From positions 1 to 10,681 of the forward strand of contig JAHQXB010000119.1 in the NCBI GenBank assembly GCA_029856435.1: DNA of 10,681 nt. The letters are read 5' to 3'. Positions 66 through 10,681 of this stretch are shown here, piece by piece (positions within the stretch are counted from its first letter, which is position 1; each line of letters starts with the position of its first letter). The notes under the pieces were generated by a model. The model worked only from the letters and a program-made list of their open reading frames with translations. It did no database searches and had not been told where the DNA came from. Origin of the DNA: Candidatus Jordarchaeia archaeon. GTDB lineage: Archaea > Asgardarchaeota > Jordiarchaeia > Jordiarchaeales > Jordiarchaeaceae. The position numbers and the translations under genes were made by a program.

Positions 66-164
66 AACCGCTTTAATCACATCAAAAATTATTACCTAAA
101 AACCAAAAGAATTTTTGGACGTGTTCATTGACAGGAAAGATTTTTTTTATGTCTGTAAACTTGA

Positions 165-205
165 TATGTATATATGTCTCAAATTTAAAAAGTGGGAGTT
201 GGTGT
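165..205 (+). promoter_or_regulatory. Putative archaeal promoter and RBS for the 211 gene
   Basis: AT-rich TATATA/AAATTTAAAAA tract (about 173-191) followed by GGGAGTTGGTG just upstream of ATG 211. Confidence 0.4.
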
Positions 206-210
206 TGTGT

Positions 211-1023
211 ATGGTTGGGACTAGAAGGTTTTTCACTGTGAACCAGATTGATGCGACTGGCGCGGGGAGTCCCCATCAGAGGGAGCTGGAGGAGTATAGT
301 GCCAATAAATTTTCTTTGTTTAAGGGTTTGGAGGAGGCTACACTCCGCAGTATAGTGTATGGGGAACTTGGTGCAAGATTGGATAATGTGGGGTTGAATG
401 AGGATTGGACTATTACCATCGAATTTTTCCCCGAAGCAAAAGTGCACATTTCCTATTTCTATTACGGGGATGAGTTTGGGGATGTGGAGGGTGAACTAAA
501 ATTCCTGTTCTCAGGGGAACAAGTCTACATGATTCCCGGGGAGGATATGGTTACTTATACGGGAATAATTTTGGATTTTATTGAACGCAGAATCAAAAAC
601 CAAGAACCCATCGATAAAGGTTATGGCGAAAAGACGGAGCTGATGAAGAAGATTTTGGAACAGCGTAAAGAGCCATTCAATCTCCTGGAGAAGAAAGATG
701 CAGAAGAGCTCGGGAAATTCATTGGCGGAGAAATAACCATAAGGGGTTCAAATTGGAACATAAAAAGGGAAGTGCTCCCCGAAATTTTTGTGGAGGTAAC
801 CTTCGATAAGGGCAAAAATATGTTAGACACATCATATTCGGGTAAAAATCTTACCAAAATAGGGAGATACCACTTAGAGCTGATTGCAACATTCACCATA
901 AACCACATTCTCAGGTACATTGCATTGAGAAACCAAGATAAAAAACTTCCCACTATTTGCTACAAAATGTTTTCCAGACTGTTCACCAAAGAAAAAGGCT
1001 GGAACCATAGGAAAGCATCATAA
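211..1023 (+). CDS. Hypothetical protein with two tandem DUF3786-like domains (about 270 aa)
   Basis: The ORF track starts at TTG 115, but ATG 211 has an SD (GGAG/GGTG) and the upstream extension overlaps promoter-like DNA. FFPEAKVHISYFYYGDEFGDVEGELKFLFS resembles the DUF3786 pattern (LPxxPxxhhhWxGDxEFPxxxxhLF), recognised by eye. An internal repeat is visible: FPEAKVHIS...LFSGE...ILDFIERRI versus LPEIFVEVT...SYSGK...TINHILRYI. Confidence 0.6.
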   Translation: MVGTRRFFTVNQIDATGAGSPHQRELEEYSANKFSLFKGLEEATLRSIVYGELGARLDNVGLNEDWTITIEFFPEAKVHISYFYYGDEFGDVEGELKFLFSGEQVYMIPGEDMVTYTGIILDFIERRIKNQEPIDKGYGEKTELMKKILEQRKEPFNLLEKKDAEELGKFIGGEITIRGSNWNIKREVLPEIFVEVTFDKGKNMLDTSYSGKNLTKIGRYHLELIATFTINHILRYIALRNQDKKLPTICYKMFSRLFTKEKGWNHRKAS

Positions 1024-1186
1024 ATACTATTAACCCTTTTTCCCACATTTGTAAATAATGTAGTGTTTAGGGATTGCAGTAGGTAATGCTCAGTTTGTTG
1101 AAAGATGCGCCGAGGAATCTGGGGTCTGTGTAGAAAACACTTTAGAAGATGGTTACTATTAAAATTTACTTGTTGTTCTTTGTTTT

Positions 1187-1629
1187 TCAACTTTTTCGGG
1201 TTTTAACACGGCTGTTCTTAAATTTGATAATTTTTTTGATTTTGTCTGATTCTTCAGGCAGGTAGTAGGCTTCACCAAATTTTTTGCATTTTCAATCATT
1301 CTTTTACTGCAGGGAACCAGAGCTGAGTTTGCAGCGAAAATAAAGTATGCGTCAAGGGCTCTGGAATGGGTTTCTTAAACTACTTTGAAAGCCTCGTCGA
1401 ATATAAAATCCTCAGATAGAACTTCGAAATCAGCGGTGAGTTCTTCATCTTTTTTGGAGAAGATTATGTTAAGCCTTCCTGCGACAGAAACTAATTCAAG
1501 GAGAAAAACTCTTGGTATGAATATGAGCAGGCCTTCAATTGACCTCAATAGTTCTTTAGCCATTCTGTTTCTGGCTTCATTCTTTTCAAAGAGAGAATCA
1601 ACAAAAACAGAAAAATCAACAACAAGCAC
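1187..1629 (-). pseudogene. vapC: PIN-domain (VapC-like) toxin pseudogene
   Basis: The N-terminus [14 protein letters not shown]...PRVFLLEL has the PIN D and E motifs. After an in-frame TAA at 1375-1377 the frame continues ETHSRALDAYFIFAA (the PIN 'DAxhhAxA' motif). A frameshift then gives FGEAYYLPEE. The 3' boundary is approximate. Confidence 0.8.
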
Positions 1630-1834
1630 TCCTTAACTCCTCAAGCACTCTGTAGGCACCCTCAACTTTCTCAATTTTTTCTTCCAGCTCTGCCAGCTTT
1701 TCAAAAAATCTTTTAGTAACTTTTTTGGTTTCATTAATCTATATTTTTCACGAACTCACTCTCTCTCAACCCCACTTTTATGAGGGTTTGAAAACTCCGT
1801 TTCTCATTTATGACTTCAATAATTCACCAATCAA
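1616..1834 (-). pseudogene. AF2212/DUF104-like antitoxin pseudogene
   Basis: Pieces in different frames read IIEVINENGVFKP / LIKVGLRESEFVK / [37 protein letters not shown], matching the AF2212-type 'IEVIYENGVFKPLxKVxLxEGE' signature. It overlaps the PIN start as in VapBC operons and has a GGTGGT SD. Several frameshifts. Confidence 0.75.
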
Positions 1835-2019
1835 AACCACCAGTTAAACTACTAATTATGGAAGTTTGCCTAAATTTTTCCTCCGAAACGAAAGCACTGT
1901 CATCACTACAATAAGACAACGTGCCGCACCCATAATTTCTTTCAGTTTTTAGGAAATATCTCCTTTCTCTATGGTTAGAGCCGGCTATGTATAAGAAGCC
2001 TGCAGCTTACAACTAACCC

Positions 2020-2586
2020 GTGAAGCTACTCCACATACACTCCAGAAACAGAAGAAGGGGACGAAGGCTATATCAGAAATACGCAAGAAGGTGGAGGAGC
2101 CGCGTAAAAAAACTACTTGTGTCTCCTGGCAAAACACCTGGCCACCGCCTTCCCTGCACAGCACTGGTTTGAAAAACCGGAGAAGAAAAAAATGCAAAAG
2201 AAACACCACAAGAAGTGGAACCGCAGGCGGGGGGAGGCCGGCTGGCGGCTACTGGTTCTCCCTGATGAGGGGCTGGGCCCCAGTGGTGGAGGTCAGCCCG
2301 GGGTTACACCTCGAAAAACTGCAGCAGATGCGGGGGGCTGAATAAAGCTCTAAGGAGCCACAGGTTTTTTAGTGTCCCCACTGTGGCTTCAAAGTAGACC
2401 GGTGGTTCAAATGCCCGCATAAACATTTATCACAGGGTGAGAGGAGTTTCCCCACAAAAGGAGTTCAACTTTGTGGGTGGGTTGCCCTTGACGGTGGTGG
2501 AGCAGAGTGACCCCTATGAGCCCGTGAGGGGTGTGGGTGATGTGGTGAAGCCCTGGGTCTACATATGTCTACTTTTGACAGCGTAG
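2020..2586 (+). pseudogene. tnpB: tnpB (IS200/IS605/IS607-family RNA-guided nuclease) pseudogene, N-terminally truncated
   Basis: Stitched translation: VKLLHIH..RRLYQKYARRWRSRVK / YLCLLAKHLATAFPAQHWFEK..KKWNRR..AGWRLLV / SLMRGWAPVVEVSPG / YTSKNCSRCGGLNK / CPHCGFKVDR / NARINIYHRVRG...VVKPWVYICLLLTA*. It shows the RuvC-II E, the YTS-CxxC...CxxC zinc finger and the RuvC-III NAxINI motif. Five frame changes, near 2110, 2258, 2303, 2370 and 2410. Confidence 0.88.
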
Positions 2587-2594
2587 ACTACAAC
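2020..2594 (+). mobile_element. Degenerate tnpB-carrying IS remnant (element A). Right end probably at CAAC 2591-2594; left end not identifiable
   Basis: tnpB remnant plus a subterminal hairpin GTCTAC(2557-2562)...GTAGAC(2583-2588) followed by TA-CAAC. The same arrangement is seen at element B. Host-type sequence (a HEPN gene fragment) begins immediately after. Confidence 0.7.
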
Positions 2595-2614
2595 TCCCCT
2601 TATTGAAATAGGGG
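2430..2614 (+). ncRNA. Predicted TnpB omegaRNA (scaffold plus about 20-nt flank-derived guide), element A
   Basis: omegaRNA is known to overlap the tnpB 3' end and IS right end. Stems seen: CCCACAAA/TTTGTGGG, ACCCC/GGGGT (2510-2514/2528-2532) and the terminal GTCTAC/GTAGAC. Boundaries are inferred. Confidence 0.6.
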
Positions 2615-2839
2615 AACACATAATCACGAAAGAAAAGCTGGTTTTTCCGTTAACCTATAGGGAACTCTTTGAAATTCTCAAAAATAGGGGGAATAATATT
2701 TGGTGAAGTTTTTAACTCCGCTGAAAGACTAATTTTTTTGAGAAACCTGATAGCTTATGAATATTACAGTATTAGAGAGGAGGAGCTGTTGGAGGTGGTG
2801 GAACTGCTTGAAAGTGTAAATGACTTGTTCGAAAAGTAA
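2599..2839 (+). pseudogene. HEPN/DUF86 (HepT-like) ribonuclease toxin pseudogene, 3' part
   Basis: LIEIGEHIITKEKLVFPLTYRELFEILKNRG, then a frameshift in the G-run near 2687-2691, then IIFGEVFNSAERLIFLRNLIAYEYYSIREEELLEVVELLESVNDLFEK*. This is a typical DUF86 'PxTYRExFExL...RNxIAHEY' pattern with the catalytic H replaced by Y. The 5' part is missing where element A ends. Confidence 0.78.
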
Positions 2840-2951
2840 AGAAAAAATGGAGGTTGTGGTGGTCCCCGATTTCCTTCAGAACCTCAAAACAGGTTGGTAA
2901 AGGTAGTAACGAAATCGTTGGATACTATTTCTCAGTCCACCAATGGTTCTT

Positions 2952-3998
2952 TTAAATTTGGATGCGGAAATATTTTCCATATTTTTTTGTGGCTTTAATC
3001 ATTGTTTTGAAGTTTTCGATTTTGACTGCGTTGTGGATGGAGTTGCTGGAACTTAAAATGTATCCACCTCCATTTGCCGCTTCTTCTATGCATCTTTTAA
3101 CTTCTCTTACTGTGTCATCAATGGTTCCGAGTGGCAGAATGTTGGTTACATCCACATTGCCCACGATGCATATTTTATCTCCAAATTTTTGTTTTACTTC
3201 TCTTAGGCTCATTCCAGCTTGGGGTTCTATGGGGTGCAGTGCATCTATTCCCGTATTCACAATGTCTTCCAGGATAGGCCAGATGTTTCCATCGCAGTGC
3301 TTAATGAAGGGGACTCCCCTCCGGTGAACCTCGTCCACGATTTTTTTAAGGTAGGGGGCAATGAATTCTCGGAAAAGTTTCACCGACATGAACGGTCCAT
3401 GTTTATAGGCGTAGTCATCTCCCGATATGAGGGCGTCTACTCCCAGATCAATCATGGCTTTTGCCAGCTCAATGTTGTAATTTACGGAGGCTTCAATGAT
3501 TCTCCTCGCAAAGCCGGGGTTCTTGTAAAGGTCTATGAGGAAATTGTTTACGCCCCTCATTTGGGAGGGTATCTCGAAGGCGTCGTGGATTCCACCCACA
3601 ACCGCCAACCGGTACTTGTTGTTTTTTATCACCATTCTGAGCCTATCCAGCCTATCATAGTCAAATGGGTCGGGTGGTGAAAAATTTTCAAAATCCTCCT
3701 CGCTATCTATTGTGCCCCTTACATAATAGATGACCTCGTTTTCCTCCACTGACCATATTCTAGCCCAATCATCAATGAAGGACTTCTCATCCAGAGGCTT
3801 CACGGGCCTAAAATTGTCCCAAAAATTTATGCCGTCCAACCCACAGCCACTGTAAACTTCATAAAAGTCCAAAGCGTCTCTGGGAGTCCTGCCCAAAATT
3901 TTCCTAACTATGGGGACATTAATCTCAATCTCGAAAAGAGGGACAGCGTCCGGCTCCTCACCGTAAAGCGCCCTTAAAATCCTCTCTCTAGAATCCAT
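2952..3998 (-). CDS. URO-D/MtaA-CmuA superfamily protein (probable corrinoid-dependent methyltransferase), paralogue 1
   Basis: Start set at ATG 3998 (MDSRERILRAL, GGTG SD) rather than 4022. Family motifs: EEPDAVPLFE, FIDDWARIW, DDYA...GPFMS, KHCDGN, HPIEPQAGM, GNVDV, GGYILSSSNSI. It lacks the RQAGR motif of true HemE. Confidence 0.85.
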   Translation of the reverse strand: MDSRERILRALYGEEPDAVPLFEIEINVPIVRKILGRTPRDALDFYEVYSGCGLDGINFWDNFRPVKPLDEKSFIDDWARIWSVEENEVIYYVRGTIDSEEDFENFSPPDPFDYDRLDRLRMVIKNNKYRLAVVGGIHDAFEIPSQMRGVNNFLIDLYKNPGFARRIIEASVNYNIELAKAMIDLGVDALISGDDYAYKHGPFMSVKLFREFIAPYLKKIVDEVHRRGVPFIKHCDGNIWPILEDIVNTGIDALHPIEPQAGMSLREVKQKFGDKICIVGNVDVTNILPLGTIDDTVREVKRCIEEAANGGGYILSSSNSIHNAVKIENFKTMIKATKKYGKYFRIQI

Positions 3999-4110
3999 CA
4001 ATATACACCACTTCATAGGCAAATTTCACAATTCAATGTTTTCAATAAAACTTACCGAGAACAAGATTTAATACTATTCTCACCCCTCGGTGCCAAGTAT
4101 GTGAAAGTTT

Positions 4111-5190
4111 TTAGTGCCTCGGGTAAACTCCAAACTTTTTAGCTGTTTTTATTTGGGCCAGAAAGTTTTCTGGTTTGCACCAGTCATTAATTTGATGTCC
4201 TGAGCCCAGAAGGTAGCCTCCGCCGGGAGCGGCTGCGTTTATGGCTCTTCTCACTTCTCGGGCGACTTCCTCAGGTGTTCCGAAGGGTAGAAGGTGGGAA
4301 ACGTCAATGTTTCCAACCAAGCAAATTTTTTCTCCCCACTTCTCAGCCACCTCCCCTATGTCCATGCCTGCTTTGGGCTCTAAGGGTTGAATGGCGTCCA
4401 CCCCTGCTTTTATTATGAGATCCATGAGGAGACGGATATCTCCGTCAGAGTGCACCATGAGAAAAGCCCCCTTTTTATGGAATGTGTCAGCCGCCTTTTT
4501 TAGGCAGGGATAAATGAACTGTTCAAAGTGCTTGGGAGAAATCATGGGTCCATGGGTGTAGCCGTAGTCGTCCCAGTCTAGGAGAACCTCCGCTCCCAGA
4601 TCTATGCAGGCTTTCCCCAGCTCTATTAGGAATTTGGTTGAGTCTGCAAGAACCCTTTTGACGAATTGGGGATTTGTGAAAATGTAGCGGAACATGTTCT
4701 CCCAGCCCAGAGCCTCGCCCTGAACTTCCCAAATGGAGCCCACTGCAGCTACTGGGAGTATGCGGTCGCCTGCGGCTTTTACTGCGATTTTAAATTGTTC
4801 AATGCCCCAAGAGTCTAGAGGGTCAAGTCTGGGAAATTCCTCATATTTTTCGGGGGTGGTCAGGTATCCGCCCATGTAGAAGTGGGAAATGTAGCTCGCA
4901 GAAACATTGGCGCTGTAGATTCGCCCCCATGAGTCAACATATCTGTCCTTATCCAATCCTCTAGCGTTTTTAGGATTAAACATTAGAGTGTATACAGTGG
5001 AGCTGTCCAGTCCCAATTTTTCGTAAAGGTCAAACTCTTTTTCCCAGCCTGCGTATATGGAGAGGCACTCTTCGGGTTTCTTATTGAAAATCTTGCCCAG
5101 AACCAGGGGACTAACTGCCAATTCAAAAAGTGGCACTCTGTCCGGTTCTTCATGCATAAGGGCTTTGAGAACTCTTTCACGCGGCTTCAC
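4111..5190 (-). CDS. URO-D/MtaA-CmuA superfamily protein (probable corrinoid-dependent methyltransferase), paralogue 2
   Basis: GTG start with a GGGGTG SD. Motifs: KPRERVLKALMHEEPDRVPLFE, YVDSWGRIY, DDYG...GPMISP, VHSDGD, QPLEPKAGMD, GNIDV, GGGYLLGSGHQI. Clearly paralogous to 2952-3998. Confidence 0.87.
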   Translation of the reverse strand: MKPRERVLKALMHEEPDRVPLFELAVSPLVLGKIFNKKPEECLSIYAGWEKEFDLYEKLGLDSSTVYTLMFNPKNARGLDKDRYVDSWGRIYSANVSASYISHFYMGGYLTTPEKYEEFPRLDPLDSWGIEQFKIAVKAAGDRILPVAAVGSIWEVQGEALGWENMFRYIFTNPQFVKRVLADSTKFLIELGKACIDLGAEVLLDWDDYGYTHGPMISPKHFEQFIYPCLKKAADTFHKKGAFLMVHSDGDIRLLMDLIIKAGVDAIQPLEPKAGMDIGEVAEKWGEKICLVGNIDVSHLLPFGTPEEVAREVRRAINAAAPGGGYLLGSGHQINDWCKPENFLAQIKTAKKFGVYPRH

Positions 5191-5236
5191 ACCTTACACC
5201 CCTTAAACCGTCTACTTAATAATTTTCCACTCTTAA

Positions 5237-5400
5237 ATGAGTACTCATAAACTTATTGTATAACTGTTTTTAAATATAATTCATAAGTTTGATGGTACTC
5301 CCCCAACCAAACATTCTTTTACACTCTTAGCCCTACACGTTTACCATTTTACAAGAAGGAAGAACATTAGCGAAAGAGGTTTCCCATCAAAGTTTACTTG
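5237..5400. promoter_or_regulatory. Divergent promoter region with BRE/TATA-like boxes, a 12-bp palindrome and an imperfect 18-nt inverted repeat
   Basis: ATGAGTACTCAT (5237-5248) is a perfect palindrome. GAGTACTCATAAACTTAT (5239-5256) is nearly the reverse complement of ATAAGTTTGATGGTACTC (5283-5300). A related CCATCAAAGTTTAC lies at about 5384-5397. The region sits between the divergent starts at 5190 and 5501. Confidence 0.5.
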
Positions 5401-5500
5401 AACAAATTGTTAAAATAACCATAGATTGGTGATGGTTTGTGGAAAATAATAAAAGGGGGAATAGTCGAAAAAGTTCTAAAAAGAAATTTGGGGAAGAGTA

Positions 5501-5806
5501 ATGGCGTCTAAACAGAAAATTAGAGTCTTGCAGGGAACGGTTCTCAGTATTGAGAAAACAGGCGAGAAGAAAAAGGATGAAGAAGGAAATGTTTGGGAAA
5601 AGTGTATCTTCAGCCTCGAACTAACCGGCTTTTCGAAAAGAACCCCCCATGAAGAATTGCCATCCGAACTTAAGAGTAAAAAAATTAAGCTTGTCAGGTG
5701 GTGTTGCTTTGACTGGCACTACAAAACAGGAGTCAGAAAAACACTGGAACCAGAAGAGACTGAGGCTGTCTTGAAGAATAAGCCCCTAGACTCAGTATAT
5801 TGGTGA
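5501..5806 (+). CDS. Small hypothetical protein (101 aa), beta-rich, with a WCCFDWH motif
   Basis: Clean ORF with ATG after GGGGAAGAGT. It ends 6 nt before the corrinoid gene and has natural-looking composition. No family recognised. Confidence 0.75.
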   Translation: MASKQKIRVLQGTVLSIEKTGEKKKDEEGNVWEKCIFSLELTGFSKRTPHEELPSELKSKKIKLVRWCCFDWHYKTGVRKTLEPEETEAVLKNKPLDSVYW

Positions 5807-5812
5807 CGTGAA

Positions 5813-6460
5813 ATGGACGAAGCACAAATTTTAGAAAGGTTAAGAGAAAGTGTAGTCAACCTTGATATTGAAGAAGTTAAGAAAGCCTGCCAAGATGCTT
5901 TAGCTCAGGGAATACCTCCAATCAGAGCCATTACGGAAGGAATGGCTAAGGGCATGGATATTGTGGGACAAAAGTATGAGGCAAAAGAATACTTCCTAGC
6001 AGAACTCATCATGTCCGGAGAAGTCATGAAGGAAGGGATGAAAATACTAAGCCCACACCTCAAAGACTCAGACGTTAAAAAAATGGCCAAGGCCGTCGTG
6101 GGCACAGTCAAAGGAGACCTCCACGACATTGGAAAAAACATTTTCGCAACCCTAATGATGGCGGCAGGATTCGAAGTAGTAGACCTCGGAGTAAACATTT
6201 CTCCGGAACAATTCGTGGAAGCAGTGCGCAACCATAAACCCAGAATCCTAGGACTTTCAGCCCTACTCACAGTCACCATGCAAGAATTAGAAAACGTGAT
6301 AAAAGAACTTGAAAAAGCAAATCTGAGAAACCAGGTCAAAGTCATTGTGGGCGGAGCACCACTCACTGAGGAATACGCCAAAAAGATTGGTGCGGACGCC
6401 TACGCTCCAGACGCAGTGGCGGGAGTCAACATATGTAAAAAATGGGTGGAAGGAGAATAA
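5813..6460 (+). CDS. Cobalamin-binding corrinoid protein (MtaC/MtbC/MttC-like methyl carrier)
   Basis: N-terminal cap domain (GMAKGMDIVGQKYEAKEYFLAELIMSGEVM) plus the B12-binding motif GDLHDIGKN...GLSALLT...IVGGAP (DxHxxG-SxL-GG). Confidence 0.95.
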   Translation: MDEAQILERLRESVVNLDIEEVKKACQDALAQGIPPIRAITEGMAKGMDIVGQKYEAKEYFLAELIMSGEVMKEGMKILSPHLKDSDVKKMAKAVVGTVKGDLHDIGKNIFATLMMAAGFEVVDLGVNISPEQFVEAVRNHKPRILGLSALLTVTMQELENVIKELEKANLRNQVKVIVGGAPLTEEYAKKIGADAYAPDAVAGVNICKKWVEGE

Positions 6461-6467
6461 AACTTAG

Positions 6468-8744
6468 GTGTCTGAATTGACCGAAATATACCGTGACAAA
6501 AGTCGCACAATCGAAGAAAGGGTGGAAGACCTCCTATCAAAAATGACCATAGAAGAGAAAGTGGGGCAAATGTCGGGCTTCTTCATGATAACCCCCGACA
6601 TAGCCCTAGAAGCCATAGAAAAATACCATGCAGGAGCCGGAGCCCCATTTCTCCTATGGGAGAAGGCCACCGACCTAACCAACACCGTAAACACTATCCA
6701 GAGCTACGCCTTGGAGAAGACCCGCCTAGGCATACCCCTCCTACTATACACCGATGCTGACCACGGCCACGCCTTCGTTAAGGGAACCACCGTTTTCCCC
6801 CACAACTTGGGCATGGCCTCAACCTGGGACCCAGAATTTTCAAAAAAAGTAGCTGAAGTTTCAGCTAGAGAAACGCGAGCCACAGGCATACACCAGAATC
6901 TCAACCCCGTTTGCGACATTGCCAGAGATCCAAGGTGGGGGAGAACATTTGAAACCTTTGGTGAAAGCCCCTACCTCTGCTCCATTATGGCTGCCGCAAT
7001 GGTGCAGGGCTACCAAGGAGGGGAAGGTTTCATAGTGGACAGCAAACATTTGGCCGCCACAGCTAAGCACTTCCCCGCTTACAGCGCCCCTGAGGGAGGA
7101 GAAGACACCGCACCAGTAGACATCTCAGAGTACACCTTTTACACTGTCCATCTTCCCTCCTTTGAAGCTGCAATAAAGTCTGGAGTCCTATCCATAATGC
7201 CCTGCTACAACGAGATAAATGGGAAGCCAGCGCACGGTTCCTATGAGTACCTCACAGAGCTACTTAGAGGCAAATTGGGGTTTAGAGGAATAGTGGTTTC
7301 GGATTGGGGCGGTGTAGAAATGCTCCACAGATACCATAGGACTGCCGAAGGTTACAAGGACGCTGTGAAACAGGCCGTAGCGGCTGGTCTGGACATTGAC
7401 TCAATTGGAGGAGCCAGATTCTACCAGGCCCTCTTGGAACTGGTCAACAGCGGTGAGATATCTGAGAAGAGGATAGACTTATCGGTGAGGAGAATACTTG
7501 AGGTAAAGTTTAGGTTGGGCCTATTTGAAAAGGTCTATGTGGATCCTGAAGAGACACAAAGAGTTGTGGGAAGTAGCCAGAATAAGGAGTTAGCCCTACA
7601 AGCTTCTAGGAAAAGCATAGTGCTGCTCAAGAATGAGGGCCTCTTACCCTTAAAGAAGGATTTGAACTCCATACTGGTAACTGGGCCGAACGCCGACAAC
7701 TTGGAGGGACTTTTAGGCGGCTGGACAAACCACTTCGGTCCCTGGCCCTCGGCGGTGACCGTTTTGGAAGCCATAAAGGGCAAGGTCTCATCCAAAACCA
7801 AGGTTTCCTATGTGAAGGGCGCAGACTATAATGAGCTGGGGAGCCTAGAGGAAGTAAAGGAGAAGGCTAAGGAGAGCGACGTAGCCATAACTGTCCTTGG
7901 TGAACCAGCCTATATACATGAGTTTTGGAGCTTGGCGGACGCCGCATCAGTTATGAGCTTTGATACTGGTCTGCCCAACGTTGAGCTTACAAAGGAGTTG
8001 AAACAGAAGCTTTTAGCAAGGCTGGACGTATTCCCCTCTCGAGTACTCCTAGAGTTGCCCTATGCGCAGTTGAAGCTGGTTGAGGCGATTCGCGAGGTAG
8101 GCATCCCCATTGTTGCAGTGTTGCTGTTGGGTAGGCCCCTAGCTGTAAAATGGATAGCCGAGAATATACCTGCAATCTTGTTAGCTTTTCACCCGGGCTT
8201 GGAGGGTGGAAGAGCAATAGCCGACGTACTATTCGGAGACTACAATCCCGGAGGAAAATTGCCTGTTTCCATTCCCAGATATGTGGGTCAAATACCAGTA
8301 AGACACAACTTTAAGAGTAGACCCTTCGTTGAGGCTCATCCACCAGCCTATGCTCCGCTCTTCGAATTCGGATATGGTTTAAGCTACACGCGTTTTGAGT
8401 ATAGTGATCTTGAGGTTATCCCCAAAAATGTGGGTGTAGGAGGCAAAGTAAAGGTATCATTAACAGTTAAAAACACTGGCGAAGTGGCTGGAGAGGAGGT
8501 GGTGCAGCTCTATGTTTGTGACGTGTGCAGTTCGCGGGTTACACCCCTCAAAGAGCTAAAAGGATTCACAAAAATATTTTTGAAGCCTGGTGAAAGTCAG
8601 AGAGTTAACCTCCAATTGAACGTAGAAGACCTAGCAGTTTATCAGGGCGGGGGAAGATTCGCTGTGGAGCGTGGCCTATTCAAAATAATGGTTGGAGCCT
8701 CCTGTGAGGACATTAGGCTGGAAGATAGCTTCGAAGTCGTTTAG
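6468..8744 (+). CDS. Glycoside hydrolase family 3 (BglX-like beta-glucosidase/xylosidase) with a C-terminal Fn3-like domain; no signal peptide
   Basis: Motifs: TIEEKVGQM, TRLGIPLL, HG...TVFP, RDPRWGRTFETFGE, AKHF, nucleophile SDW (D codon 7302-7304), SIVLLKN, PGGKLP, LFEFGYGLSYT, EEVVQLY...KELKGFTKI. GTG start 7 nt after the corrinoid stop, with a GGAG upstream. Confidence 0.95.
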   Translation: MSELTEIYRDKSRTIEERVEDLLSKMTIEEKVGQMSGFFMITPDIALEAIEKYHAGAGAPFLLWEKATDLTNTVNTIQSYALEKTRLGIPLLLYTDADHGHAFVKGTTVFPHNLGMASTWDPEFSKKVAEVSARETRATGIHQNLNPVCDIARDPRWGRTFETFGESPYLCSIMAAAMVQGYQGGEGFIVDSKHLAATAKHFPAYSAPEGGEDTAPVDISEYTFYTVHLPSFEAAIKSGVLSIMPCYNEINGKPAHGSYEYLTELLRGKLGFRGIVVSDWGGVEMLHRYHRTAEGYKDAVKQAVAAGLDIDSIGGARFYQALLELVNSGEISEKRIDLSVRRILEVKFRLGLFEKVYVDPEETQRVVGSSQNKELALQASRKSIVLLKNEGLLPLKKDLNSILVTGPNADNLEGLLGGWTNHFGPWPSAVTVLEAIKGKVSSKTKVSYVKGADYNELGSLEEVKEKAKESDVAITVLGEPAYIHEFWSLADAASVMSFDTGLPNVELTKELKQKLLARLDVFPSRVLLELPYAQLKLVEAIREVGIPIVAVLLLGRPLAVKWIAENIPAILLAFHPGLEGGRAIADVLFGDYNPGGKLPVSIPRYVGQIPVRHNFKSRPFVEAHPPAYAPLFEFGYGLSYTRFEYSDLEVIPKNVGVGGKVKVSLTVKNTGEVAGEEVVQLYVCDVCSSRVTPLKELKGFTKIFLKPGESQRVNLQLNVEDLAVYQGGGRFAVERGLFKIMVGASCEDIRLEDSFEVV

Positions 8745-8888
8745 TTCCAAGCGAATCTTCATCCTTGAATCAAATGACCACCTCTTCAAATCTTTTTCCA
8801 TATTTATTGTCTGTACCTATGATACTATTTTTATTTAGGGAACGCCAGAGTATTTCCTGTTAACTCTTTTCATGGAGGGCTGATAAAC

Positions 8889-9443
8889 TTGTCAAGTTCA
8901 AGGCTTCTTTCGCGTGAGCATGCTGCGCTTGTTATTATTGATGTTCAGGAGAAATTGTGGGCTGTAATGCAGGATAAGGAGAGAATTGTGCAGAACATTT
9001 TGAAGTTGATTGATTTTGCTAGGATAGTGGGGCTTCCTATTATAGTTACTGAGCAGTATCCTAAGGGTTTGGGTCCTACAGTTAAACAGATAAGGGATAG
9101 GCTTCCTAGAATTGTGCCCATTGAAAAGACGGTTTTTGACTGTTTTGGAGCTGAAGGCTTCAGGGAAAAAATAAGGGAGCTTAATGTTTCCACCCTAATT
9201 CTTGTGGGTATCGAGTCGCATGTGTGTGTTACTCAAACCGCGCTATCGGGCTTGGATAACAATTTGAGGGTTTGTGTTGTTTCTGACGCTGTTTCTTCTC
9301 GCACGCGGGAAAACTATCAAATTGGAATTGAGCGGATGAGGGACAGTGGAGCTATAATATCCTCCACGGAGATGCTTATGTTTGAACTTTTAAGGGATGC
9401 TAACACTAGAGAATTTAAGGAAGCTCAAAACCTATTTAAATAA
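8889..9443 (+). CDS. Isochorismatase-family cysteine hydrolase (YcaC/ISOC-like)
   Basis: Catalytic triad pattern: IIDVQE (D), IEKTVFDC (K) and GIESHVCV (C), plus TEQYPKGLGPT. TTG start with a GGAGG SD. Confidence 0.92.
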   Translation: MSSSRLLSREHAALVIIDVQEKLWAVMQDKERIVQNILKLIDFARIVGLPIIVTEQYPKGLGPTVKQIRDRLPRIVPIEKTVFDCFGAEGFREKIRELNVSTLILVGIESHVCVTQTALSGLDNNLRVCVVSDAVSSRTRENYQIGIERMRDSGAIISSTEMLMFELLRDANTREFKEAQNLFK

Positions 9444-9580: not shown

Positions 9581-10276
9581 GTGGAGGAATCTAGCTTTAA
9601 AATGCTCGAGGCAGCTCCTAATCTACAGCCAGATATGAGAGCCATAACACAATTAATCACGGATGGAGTTAAGGCACAAGAAAACGTTTATGGCCCCGTA
9701 TTTACCGCAAAGGTGATAGATTACGCTTTACGGCTAGTTTCTAAACAAATAGGTGAAGAAAAGCCCGAAGGTATTACAAACTTAGACCAGTTGGCGGAAT
9801 ATCTGCTCTCAAAAGAATGTAAGCTTCCCCCCCACTGGATATTGCTTTGGGCCGTGTTTAAAACTGAAAAAAAGTTCGAAGGCTATCAGGGGGCGGGAAT
9901 GCGGCTTATGGACATGGGGATTTCCAGAAAAGTGATGGAATCAACCATTGATCTGGAAGGTGACTTATCCGATGTGGGGAGTGTTCTTTCAAAGCTTCGC
10001 CGGAGCACAATTGAAATGAAGGTAGCCCCCCTCAAAATGGGGTACAAGGAAAATGAAGATGGAAGCATAAGTGTACTCCACCAAGATTGTTACTTTTTGG
10101 ATGCATGCCAGCTAGCTTTGAATGAGGGCCTACTAAAAAGAGCAGATGGAAGAATGGTGTGCGGTGTATTCTCACTTGTACGCCAATATCTGAAAAGGGC
10201 TACAGGCCGCGAGTGGGACTATACTATCTCCATATTTGATAAACCAAATTGTGTAGCCAAATTCTTCACAGTTTAA
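9581..10276 (+). CDS. Hypothetical protein with a C-terminal V4R-like Cys-rich domain
   Basis: GTG start with a GGTG SD. The C-terminus HQDCYFLDAC...MVCG...PNCV has four Cys spaced as in V4R/methanogen-output-type small-molecule-binding domains, recognised by eye. Confidence 0.6.
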   Translation: MEESSFKMLEAAPNLQPDMRAITQLITDGVKAQENVYGPVFTAKVIDYALRLVSKQIGEEKPEGITNLDQLAEYLLSKECKLPPHWILLWAVFKTEKKFEGYQGAGMRLMDMGISRKVMESTIDLEGDLSDVGSVLSKLRRSTIEMKVAPLKMGYKENEDGSISVLHQDCYFLDACQLALNEGLLKRADGRMVCGVFSLVRQYLKRATGREWDYTISIFDKPNCVAKFFTV

Positions 10277-10373: not shown

Positions 10374-10650
10374 ATCCAAAAACACCTTTTTATGTTGGGG
10401 TTCTACCCTATGTAGAAATTCATAGAATTACATAGGAGTTGGGGCTTCACAGTATCATGCGGCGGCCTCGCGAGTTCATCAGCCGCCTTCCACTCCACCC
10501 CGCTCAGGGTGAACCCGCTCCCCACCTCCACGAATCCACGTCTCCGCTTCTTCACCGACCACTTCTCCTGCGGATGTTGTCGCCAACGCCGTGAGGAGTG
10601 CAGGAGAGGCCTCACGATCGAGCGAAAGAACGTGGTCGGGTGGGGAGAAA
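10374..10650 (-). ncRNA. Predicted TnpB omegaRNA, element B, with an enlarged structured domain
   Basis: Dense perfect stems (plus-strand coordinates): 10518-10526/10639-10647 (9 bp), 10555-10562/10632-10639 (8 bp), 10564-10571/10600-10607 (8 bp), 10590-10596/10610-10616 (7 bp), 10461-10466/10482-10487 (6 bp). Boundaries are inferred. Confidence 0.65.
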
Positions 10651-10681
10651 GACCCTCCATCCTTAGGTGAAGGTTTATGGC
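10394..10681 (-). mobile_element. Right end of a tnpB-carrying IS200/IS605/IS607-family element (element B)
   Basis: On the minus strand: TTCTAC-ATAGG-GTAGAA hairpin (10417-10401), then CCC-CAAC (ending at 10394), mirroring element A. Low-complexity host intergenic DNA follows. Confidence 0.7.
10403..10681 (-). CDS. tnpB: 3' end of a tnpB gene (element B); 5' part lies beyond the window
   Basis: The frame runs from the window edge as AINLHLRMEGLSP...GSGFTLSGVEWKAADELARPPHDTVKPQLLCNSMNFYIG*. AINL is the end of the RuvC-III NAxINh motif, and the tail aligns with element A (INIYHRVRGVSP...GGLPLTVVEQSDPYEPVR...DVVKP). The ORF-track start at 10660 is internal. Confidence 0.8.
   Translation of the reverse strand, partial: AINLHLRMEGLSPHPTTFFRSIVRPLLHSSRRWRQHPQEKWSVKKRRRGFVEVGSGFTLSGVEWKAADELARPPHDTVKPQLLCNSMNFYIG

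Follow-up and report, generated by a model that had tools for sequence, protein, structure and literature searches.

Why a glycosidase should be encoded directly behind a cobamide-binding protein is the question raised by a contig from the Asgard archaeon Candidatus Freyarchaeum. The window analysed here is that entire contig, 10,681 bp in length, in which a plus-strand trio of genes (hyp101, a corrinoid carrier and a GH3 glycosidase) faces two URO-D-family paralogues on the minus strand (Table 1). This divergent arrangement, as described in the original prediction, was recovered by ORF and domain calls, and the short gaps it had claimed could be read from the sequence, with 6 nt between hyp101 and the corrinoid gene (5807-5812) and 7 nt between the corrinoid gene and GH3 (6461-6467). 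It had also named several parts as missing, and RACo, RamA, MtrH and transporter domains were indeed not found in the window by domain searches. Rfam and tRNA scans of the window returned no matches.

Table 1. Features of the Freyarchaeum locus, in window coordinates.
Feature	Coordinates	Strand	Remarks
UROD_A	2952..4022	-	PF01208 7.6e-41
UROD_B	4111..5190	-	PF01208 6.4e-34
Divergent intergenic region	5191..5500	.	310 nt, UROD_B to hyp101
hyp101 (101 aa), first gene of predicted operon	5501..5806	+	conserved family
Corrinoid carrier	5813..6460	+	PF02607 + PF02310
GH3, last gene of predicted operon	6468..8744	+	PF00933, PF01915, PF14310 (Fn3-like)
T-rich spacer	8745..8888	+	T5 tracts ~8794-8798, ~8829-8833

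An alignment of four Freyarchaeum loci revealed two conserved A/T-rich, TATA-like blocks in the divergent intergenic region (~5272-5285 and ~5444-5455), as well as a conserved leader with GGGG ahead of the hyp101 ATG, the blocks being putative promoter elements. Further downstream, GGAG lies 11 nt upstream of the GTG start of GH3, and the T-rich spacer is probably where the operon ends and the following gene has its start region.

The GH3 protein matches PF00933 (1.5e-74), PF01915 (2.6e-46) and PF14310 (7.4e-24). Its catalytic residues are intact: D279 (VVSDWGG) and E478 (LGEPAY), taken here from established GH3 knowledge to be the nucleophile and the acid/base, occupy invariant columns in a 15-sequence alignment, and KHF is present. 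No N-terminal hydrophobic segment or signal peptide was found in it. The closest solved relatives are the beta-xylosidase 7ZB3 and BglX-type enzymes, the NCBIfam equivalog scores all fall below cut-off, and the protein is predicted to be a cytoplasmic exo-beta-glycosidase of the BglX or beta-xylosidase type. It is the sole PF00933 match in the genome, and its gene has a G+C of 0.49, compared with 0.42 for the genome. For the orthologous bglX of Ca. Freyarchaeum deiterrae, a cytoplasmic location and 14 transcripts from wetland soil are listed (PMC11291895 supplement), and the published annotation, under the name bglX, assigns the gene to the use of cellodextrins (PMC11291895).

The carrier combines a B12-binding_2 cap (PF02607, 1.7e-21) with a B12-binding Rossmann domain (PF02310, 7.3e-29) and has the DxHxxG motif in the form D102-L-H-D-I-G107. 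It reaches 195.7 bits against TIGR02370, for which the cut-off is 215, and matches the CarH family weakly (1.9e-6, 27 bits, with a cut-off of 400). Its identity to Bathyarchaeia carriers that are linked to hyp101 or to GH3 is 55-70%, compared with 48% for the best paralogue in its own genome. On these matches it is a predicted MtgC/MtbC-like cobamide-binding methyl-carrier protein.

The two divergent paralogues share 38% identity and both match PF01208; the true start of UROD_A is probably M9. UROD_A has TIGR01463 and PRK06252 as its best NCBIfam models, with MtaA (4AY7, 3.9e-14) and CdmB (9RUI, 9.5e-9) as its closest solved structures, and UROD_B also matches CdmB 9RUI (2.3e-5). Neither was filed as MtaA/MtbA, because the TIGR01463 scores of 111 bits for UROD_A and 75 bits for UROD_B are far below the cut-off of 235 and because other residues stand in place of the HxC...C zinc triad, namely KHCDGN and SSSNSI in UROD_A and HSDGD and GSGHQI in UROD_B, which likewise is devoid of cysteine zinc ligands. 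A role as an MtaA-type zinc CoM methylase was accordingly ruled out for both, and UROD_A is a candidate MtaA/CmuA-like methyltransferase of the URO-D superfamily. Zinc-free MT1 enzymes of the URO-D type do exist, as exemplified by CdmB and Moorella MtvB (PMC13222342). Orthologues of UROD_A with 73% identity lie directly 3' of hyp101 at two other loci (L094 and L095), and an orthologue of UROD_B with 62% identity lies directly 5' of the orthologous corrinoid gene at a third (L098). Gene order in other archaea thus shows both predicted zinc-less enzymes to have orthologues that partner hyp101 or the carrier.

The first gene of the trio, hyp101, occurs once in the genome. Searches of its product against Pfam and NCBIfam gave no match; no longer fused form and no significant Foldseek match were found, and the Atlas yielded only unnamed clusters, under 0.9. 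The family is small, with 33 clusters among 1.84 billion representatives, and its members in Freyarchaeia, Bathyarchaeia and Brockarchaeota share 60-80% identity, W32, C35, R47, R66, C68, D71, W72, H73 and Y74 being invariant. An AF2 model (pLDDT 86.5) depicts an OB-like beta-barrel, the top structural Z of 5.3 being to OB folds, a generic resemblance. The gene is found directly 5' of a corrinoid gene in 12 of the mapped loci, and in Bathyarchaeia and Brockarchaeota genes of this family are followed by those for corrinoid or URO-D proteins. By its neighbourhoods, hyp101 is a predicted accessory of corrinoid methyltransfer modules.

The search of gene neighbourhoods proposed in the original prediction refuted a one-off juxtaposition: the hyp101-corrinoid-GH3 trio is present in all five other Freyarchaeum species, with GH3 identities of 76-94%, and on metagenome contigs too. 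The trio stays intact even where the URO-D pair has shifted away from it, to a distance of 9 kb in the complete genome and of 3.7 kb at another locus (L050). Across the genus, then, hyp101, the cobamide carrier and the cytoplasmic GH3 form a single tight predicted transcription unit. A GH3 gene immediately 3' of the carrier is confined to Freyarchaeum. The GH3 orthologues with 71-74% identity have no carrier beside them, their neighbours being MFS transporter and UPF0261/PEP-hydrolase genes, and the hyp101-carrier loci outside the genus are without a flanking GH3, except that the contig of L098 carries one at a distance of ~12.6 kb. A 27.6-kb ENA contig may, judging from its length, bear a GH3 (P0017) together with a hyp101 (P0132).

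In Bathyarchaeia, corrinoid-methyltransfer genes adjoin GH3s of other clades in several layouts. Orthologues of the carrier (57-64%) lie beside GH3s of different clades, as placed by a quick tree, in three genomes (G600, G617 and G677), and these three carrier-GH3 pairs compare with 0.38 expected, an excess with P ~0.06 when kin are counted once. Among 62 Bathyarchaeia GH3 loci, six had a URO-D gene within 4 kb against at most 3.4 expected (P = 0.13), so a general enrichment of GH3 near Bathyarchaeia URO-D genes is unsupported. As a whole, the enrichment statistics are weak to moderate. One contig, Ga0123519_10006289, has URO-D, RACo, MtrH and GH3 genes packed on the same strand, and facing them are the genes of a sugar-type ABC transporter (SBP_bac_1, a pair of permeases and a MalK-type ATPase), two URO-D genes, a carrier and hyp101. 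The neighbours of hyp101 or URO-D genes also include sugar isomerase-like, sugar kinase, sugar dehydrogenase and esterase genes, and several GH3-URO-D neighbourhoods contain unrelated housekeeping genes. Elsewhere in the Freyarchaeum genome there are three RACo and four to five MtrH-family genes, including a carrier-RACo-MtrH cluster on contig C48 whose MtrH is 62% identical to that of the GH3 operon on Ga0123519_10006289.

These observations suggest, at a probability put a little short of even, that the locus encodes the substrate-specific entry part of a pathway in which methyl groups are transferred by way of a corrinoid protein and which acts on a methylated glycoside. The glycoside would be imported and then cleaved by GH3, and UROD_A and/or UROD_B, as MT1, would transfer the O-methyl group(s) of a methoxylated aryl aglycone or an O-methyl sugar to the carrier in its Co(I) state. 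From there, through an MtrH-type MT2 whose gene lies elsewhere, the C48 cluster being the candidate, the methyl group would reach H4MPT or H4F and so enter the Wood-Ljungdahl pathway, while RACo would re-reduce oxidised carrier and hyp101 would act as a carrier accessory, possibly for cofactor loading or docking.

The coupling of a glycosidase to demethylation, as originally predicted, is plausible from gene content and order and holds up in part. It is favoured because the trio was kept in every congener despite displacement of the URO-D genes, because UROD_A-like and UROD_B-like proteins are orthologous partners elsewhere, and because of the Ga0123519_10006289 operon, the carrier-GH3 pairs, the sugar-gene neighbours, the RACo and MtrH genes that supply a possible activator and MT2 from elsewhere in the genome, the intact GH3 residues and the deiterrae bglX transcripts. 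It is weakened because the exact layout belongs to one genus, most hyp101-carrier modules have no GH3, the GH3 orthologues keep other company and the enrichment is modest; in addition, the G+C of GH3 fits a later insertion, and the window is without transporter, MT2 or activator. No paper linking GH3 genes with corrinoid operons was found in the literature searched.

The adjacency could also be neutral. An ordinary cytoplasmic beta-glucosidase or beta-xylosidase, acting on cellodextrins or xylo-oligosaccharides, may have landed behind the carrier in an ancestor of Freyarchaeum and now use its promoter, while the methyl-transfer system serves an unrelated donor, for example free methoxylated aromatics, methylated thiols or halomethanes. 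This is a serious possibility, held to be somewhat below an even chance. It agrees with the restriction to one genus, with a GH3 G+C above that of the genome, with the published assignment to cellodextrin use (PMC11291895), with an overall proximity of GH3 and URO-D genes in Bathyarchaeia that does not exceed chance, and with the housekeeping genes in several of those neighbourhoods. It sits less easily with an operon that is still intact at 76% identity despite rearrangement of the genes around it, with independent GH3 clades that adjoin orthologous carriers or URO-D genes, one of them in a tight RACo/MtrH operon beside a sugar ABC transporter, and with a GH3 that is the only one in its genome.

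Two further accounts give the cobamide itself a different part. In one, the B12-binding protein would be a cobamide sensor or regulator of GH3 expression or activity with hyp101 as its partner, and the URO-D paralogues would be unrelated enzymes of the decarboxylase fold. The weak CarH-family match and the missing MtaA zinc site lean that way, but the cap plus Rossmann architecture with a near-threshold TIGR02370 score, a carrier without a DNA-binding domain, the URO-D, RACo and MtrH genes flanking carrier orthologues, and the precedent of zinc-free MT1s (PMC13222342) make it very improbable. In the other, GH3 would act on the cofactor, for instance by helping to remodel or salvage glycosylated precursors of the cobamide that the neighbouring carrier binds. 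Its sole support is adjacency to a cobamide-binding protein, whereas the closest relatives of the enzyme are of the BglX, beta-xylosidase and exo-glucanase types, and a domain search of the surroundings found no cobamide biosynthesis or salvage genes. To our knowledge, no GH3 has a role in cobamide remodelling or salvage, and the probability given to this account is close to nil.

Methyl ethers on sugars and plant glycosides obstruct ordinary glycolytic breakdown. The route of carbohydrate demethylation that emerged from the literature searched involves oxygen-dependent P450 enzymes (PMC6292453). It is conceivable, if on the unlikely side, that Freyarchaeia and Bathyarchaeia perform an undescribed anaerobic, cobamide-dependent O-demethylation of carbohydrates or glycosides that feeds methyl groups into the Wood-Ljungdahl pathway. 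Its substrates may be O-methylated sugars from hemicellulose, pectin or algal glycans, or else aryl glycosides with methoxyl groups. Besides a dedicated carrier subfamily and its OB-like partner hyp101, the pathway may employ URO-D methyltransferases that are free of zinc and a GH3 expressed together with them. If true, a cobamide-dependent route of this kind, in archaea that abound in sediments and soils, would explain the oxygen-free use of methylated carbon and would be a new source of C1 units in competition with the substrates of methanogenesis. With its five genes, the locus is a compact set that lends itself to testing, and it brings to attention hyp101, a conserved small family that accompanies corrinoid carriers as a putative accessory.

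Among the closest known systems are the corrinoid O-demethylases of three or four components, namely Moorella MtvABC, Odm/Vdm of Acetobacterium dehalogenans, and MtoABCD of Methermicoccus shengliensis and Archaeoglobus fulgidus. As in those, a URO-D-superfamily MT1 candidate lies beside a ~215-aa carrier of the B12-binding_2 plus B12-binding type, and a RACo-type activator and pterin methyltransferase genes are present in the genome. MtvB, OdmB, VdmB and MtoB belong to the UroD superfamily (PMC13222342), the level at which UROD_A and UROD_B are likened to them here. Unlike those systems as published, only two of the four components are at this locus, with MT2 and activator elsewhere, and the operon of this carrier includes GH3 and hyp101. 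CdmBCA, the chloromethane dehalogenase/methyltransferase of A. dehalogenans, likewise pairs a zinc-free MT1 of the URO-D fold (CdmB) with a separate corrinoid protein, but by the match values given above the likeness of both paralogues to CdmB is low, and a glycosidase is absent from the Cdm cluster. Such Asgard homologues as the CdmB paper names are from Sigynarchaeales rather than Freyarchaeia. MtaA of M. mazei, the top solved match of UROD_A, represents the MtaA/MtbA enzymes, whose zinc triad is replaced in both paralogues here.

The Bathyarchaeial MtgB/MtgC/MtgA system of Ca. Baizosediminiarchaeum ligniniphilus resembles the present one as an archaeal corrinoid system from the same phyla as the hyp101 modules; this lignin-monomer O-demethylase is proposed to pass methoxyl groups to H4MPT, its MT1 of ~300 aa has no homology to known MT1s and so is not a URO-D protein, and no glycosidase is described in its cluster (PMC10989822). 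The Freyarchaeum enzyme is strongly similar over its full length to BglX-type GH3s (E. coli BglX, 7ZB3, 3U48 and 6R5I) and shares their three-domain layout as well as the catalytic Asp and Glu. Unlike them, it is predicted to be cytoplasmic and to share its operon with a cobamide carrier.

The tight and stable unit at this locus is a trio of genes, namely hyp101 (for a 101-aa protein), a corrinoid carrier and a GH3 glycosidase, and the pair of URO-D-superfamily genes, UROD_A and UROD_B, is a looser neighbour. The trio was found in the same order and on the same strand in all five of the other species-level genomes of the genus Candidatus Freyarchaeum (5/5), with GH3 identities of 76-94%, and also in three metagenome contigs (L048, L049 and L050), so that the one-off juxtaposition that would have undone the original prediction was not seen. 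In the closest relatives the URO-D pair adjoins the trio and is divergent from it; in the complete genome G005 (CP147778) the pair lies about 9 kb off, beyond two large Big_13 surface-protein genes, and in L050 it lies 3.7 kb from the trio. The genes were called from an ORF listing with Pfam and NCBIfam scans, and the sequence itself bore out the noted gaps of 6 nt between hyp101 and the carrier and 7 nt between the carrier and GH3; the original description proved correct throughout, and the window indeed has no activator, no MT2 (the methyltransferase to H4F, H4MPT or CoM) and no transporter.

Features of the window and their best family assignments
Feature	Position	Strand	Remarks
302-aa ORF	115-1023	+	no Pfam/NCBIfam match
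Intergenic region (1.9 kb)	1024-2951		no long ORF, no Rfam match
UROD_A	2952-4022	-	PF01208
UROD_B	4111-5190	-	PF01208; 38% identity to UROD_A
hyp101	5501-5806	+	101 aa; no family match
Corrinoid protein	5813-6460	+	PF02607 + PF02310; closest models MtgC, MtbC, TIGR02370
GH3	6468-8744	+	PF00933 + PF01915 + Fn3-like
Isochorismatase-family hydrolase	8889-9443	+	
231-aa protein	9581-10276	+	no family match
92-aa ORF	10403-10681	-	open at contig end

Conserved A/T-rich, TATA-like blocks and a conserved leader precede hyp101 and may form a promoter; a GGAG lies 11 nt 5' of the GTG start of GH3, and T-tracts follow its stop. Congeners also encode the 231-aa protein 3' of GH3 and the isochorismatase gene, and its family counts at least seven further copies in this genome (24-43% identity). 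At the left end, the 302-aa ORF is single-copy in this genome, with partial copies of 69-86% identity twice near the same locus in genome G003, and the long intergenic region after it holds a G+C-rich stretch (0.53 at 2001-2500). The window is the whole contig (10,681 bp) of a 3.54 Mb genome that is 97.8% complete. By the source names given for its closest database proteins, the organism is Candidatus Freyarchaeum, an Asgard archaeon that some records list as 'Jordarchaeia'. At least 12 copies of the 92-aa ORF occur in the genome (65-97% identity), and many lie where a contig stops; the ORF probably marks where a repeated mobile element ends, and this would explain the contig break at 10681.

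The hyp101 family is compact, with 129 near-length matches and only 33 clusters among 1.84 billion representatives, and its members share 60-80% identity across Freyarchaeia, Bathyarchaeia and Brockarchaeota, with the signature RWCCFDWHYK and invariant Trp, Cys, Arg, Asp, His and Tyr residues. Among 30 related loci from genome contigs, together with L040 and L035, hyp101 stands directly 5' of a corrinoid gene in 12, a URO-D gene adjoins it in several more, and the reductive activator RACo is divergent upstream in three. On this conservation and placement, hyp101 counts as an accessory to modules for corrinoid methyl transfer. The AF2 model (pLDDT 86.5) shows a small barrel of OB-like form for which structure comparison gave no significant match, and cofactor loading or docking is only a guess at the function of hyp101. 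At three Bathyarchaeia loci (L104, 10104-15273; L096; L082) the gene after hyp101 encodes a DUF4432 protein rather than a corrinoid protein, and ESCRT-like division genes (Snf7-like, CdvA-like and Vps4-like) come next.

The GH3 has kept its catalytic Asp279 and Glu478, its sequence has no signal peptide, and among solved structures it is nearest to beta-xylosidases and BglX-type glucosidases. For Ca. Freyarchaeum deiterrae, the orthologue was reported as a cytoplasmic bglX for which 14 transcripts were counted in soil (supplement, PMC11291895) and was assigned to cellodextrin use, the operon being unmentioned (PMC11291895); nor was any description of a GH3 and corrinoid operon pairing found in the literature collection searched. 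We tentatively read the locus, at just under an even chance, as the glycoside-linked front end of a corrinoid methyl-transfer pathway, whose substrate could be either a methoxylated aryl glycoside or a sugar or oligosaccharide with O-methyl groups. The survival of the operon through flank rearrangement across the genus argues for the membership of GH3, as does the most complete cluster found, on the 18.7-kb contig Ga0123519_10006289 (loci L051 and L098). Here one strand carries, close together, a URO-D gene, RACo, MtrH (an MT2-type candidate) and a GH3 of 57% identity, and facing them are an ABC transporter of the sugar type, two URO-D genes, the orthologous carrier and hyp101. The contig is binned as Candidatus Poribacteria and its genes are closest to archaeal (Freyarchaeum) ones at 57-62% identity; mis-binning or horizontal transfer may lie behind this. 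Also in favour are carrier orthologues beside GH3s of other clades in three Bathyarchaeia genomes (G600, G617 and G677), and in a quick tree corrinoid-linked GH3s span at least five separate clades, so that the pairing arose repeatedly. Sugar-related genes likewise neighbour hyp101 or URO-D elsewhere: those for a TIM barrel like xylose isomerase, an FGGY kinase, an AraA-like isomerase, dehydrogenases of the GFO/IDH/MocA type, and hydrolases resembling GH63 and acetyl-xylan esterase. At L103 (10013-11832), hyp101 and a carrier are followed by an alpha/beta-hydrolase which, judged by its acetyl-xylan-esterase-like and glucuronoyl-esterase-like matches, is putatively a further case in which this carrier module is followed by a conjugate-releasing hydrolase. 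At L107 (G677), laid out as GH3 / URO-D, carrier, a 123-aa DUF1805 protein (7943-8314) follows the carrier and might be a different small partner at the position where hyp101 might be expected.

The main rival, an ordinary beta-glycosidase placed neutrally and lineage-specifically behind a carrier gene, is quite possible, if somewhat below an even chance. It is favoured by the restriction to Freyarchaeum of a GH3 directly 3' of a carrier, by the GH3-free flanks of hyp101-carrier loci outside the genus (except L098, with one about 12.6 kb off on the same contig), by GH3 orthologues of 71-74% identity with other neighbours, and by the G+C of the gene (0.49 versus 0.42 for the genome). Enrichment by count is weak to moderate: among 62 Bathyarchaeia GH3 loci, a URO-D gene lay within 4 kb in 6 cases, where chance would give up to 3.4 (P = 0.13), and 3 carrier-GH3 pairs against 0.38 expected gave P = 0.007, or about 0.06 with kin counted once. 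GH3 was present in 18 of about 24 genomes with a carrier at least 60% identical to that of the window, versus 49/401 sampled (Bathyarchaeia G400-G803); this may reflect no more than a single lineage rich in URO-D genes (up to 28 per 1.9 Mb).

For the front-end reading, MT2 and the activator would be supplied in trans from elsewhere in the genome, which has one GH3 and one hyp101, about 14 URO-D-family genes and about 15 carrier-sized B12-binding proteins. All three RACo activators and the 4-5 MtrH-family methyltransferases are encoded outside the window, and a carrier, RACo and MtrH occur together on another of its contigs (C48, 7103-10766). Since this MtrH is 62% identical to the one sharing an operon with GH3 on the Poribacteria-binned contig (G401), the C48 cluster is likely the trans-acting MT2 and activator.

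The carrier of the window is 55-70% identical to hyp101-following carriers of Bathyarchaeia, versus 48% to the best paralogue in its own genome. UROD_A orthologues (73% identity) lie directly 3' of hyp101 at L094 and L095, and a UROD_B orthologue (62%) lies directly 5' of the carrier at L098; these placements support the view that UROD_A and UROD_B may be the cognate methyltransferases of this carrier. A role as CoM methylases was ruled out for both, because neither has the HxC...C zinc triad of MtaA and their scores fall far under the MtaA/MtbA cut-offs. MT1 enzymes (which methylate the Co(I) carrier from the substrate) of the URO-D fold without zinc are known, as in CdmB (PMC13222342), whose superfamily also takes in MtvB, OdmB, VdmB and MtoB, O-demethylases of aryl ethers (PMC13222342).
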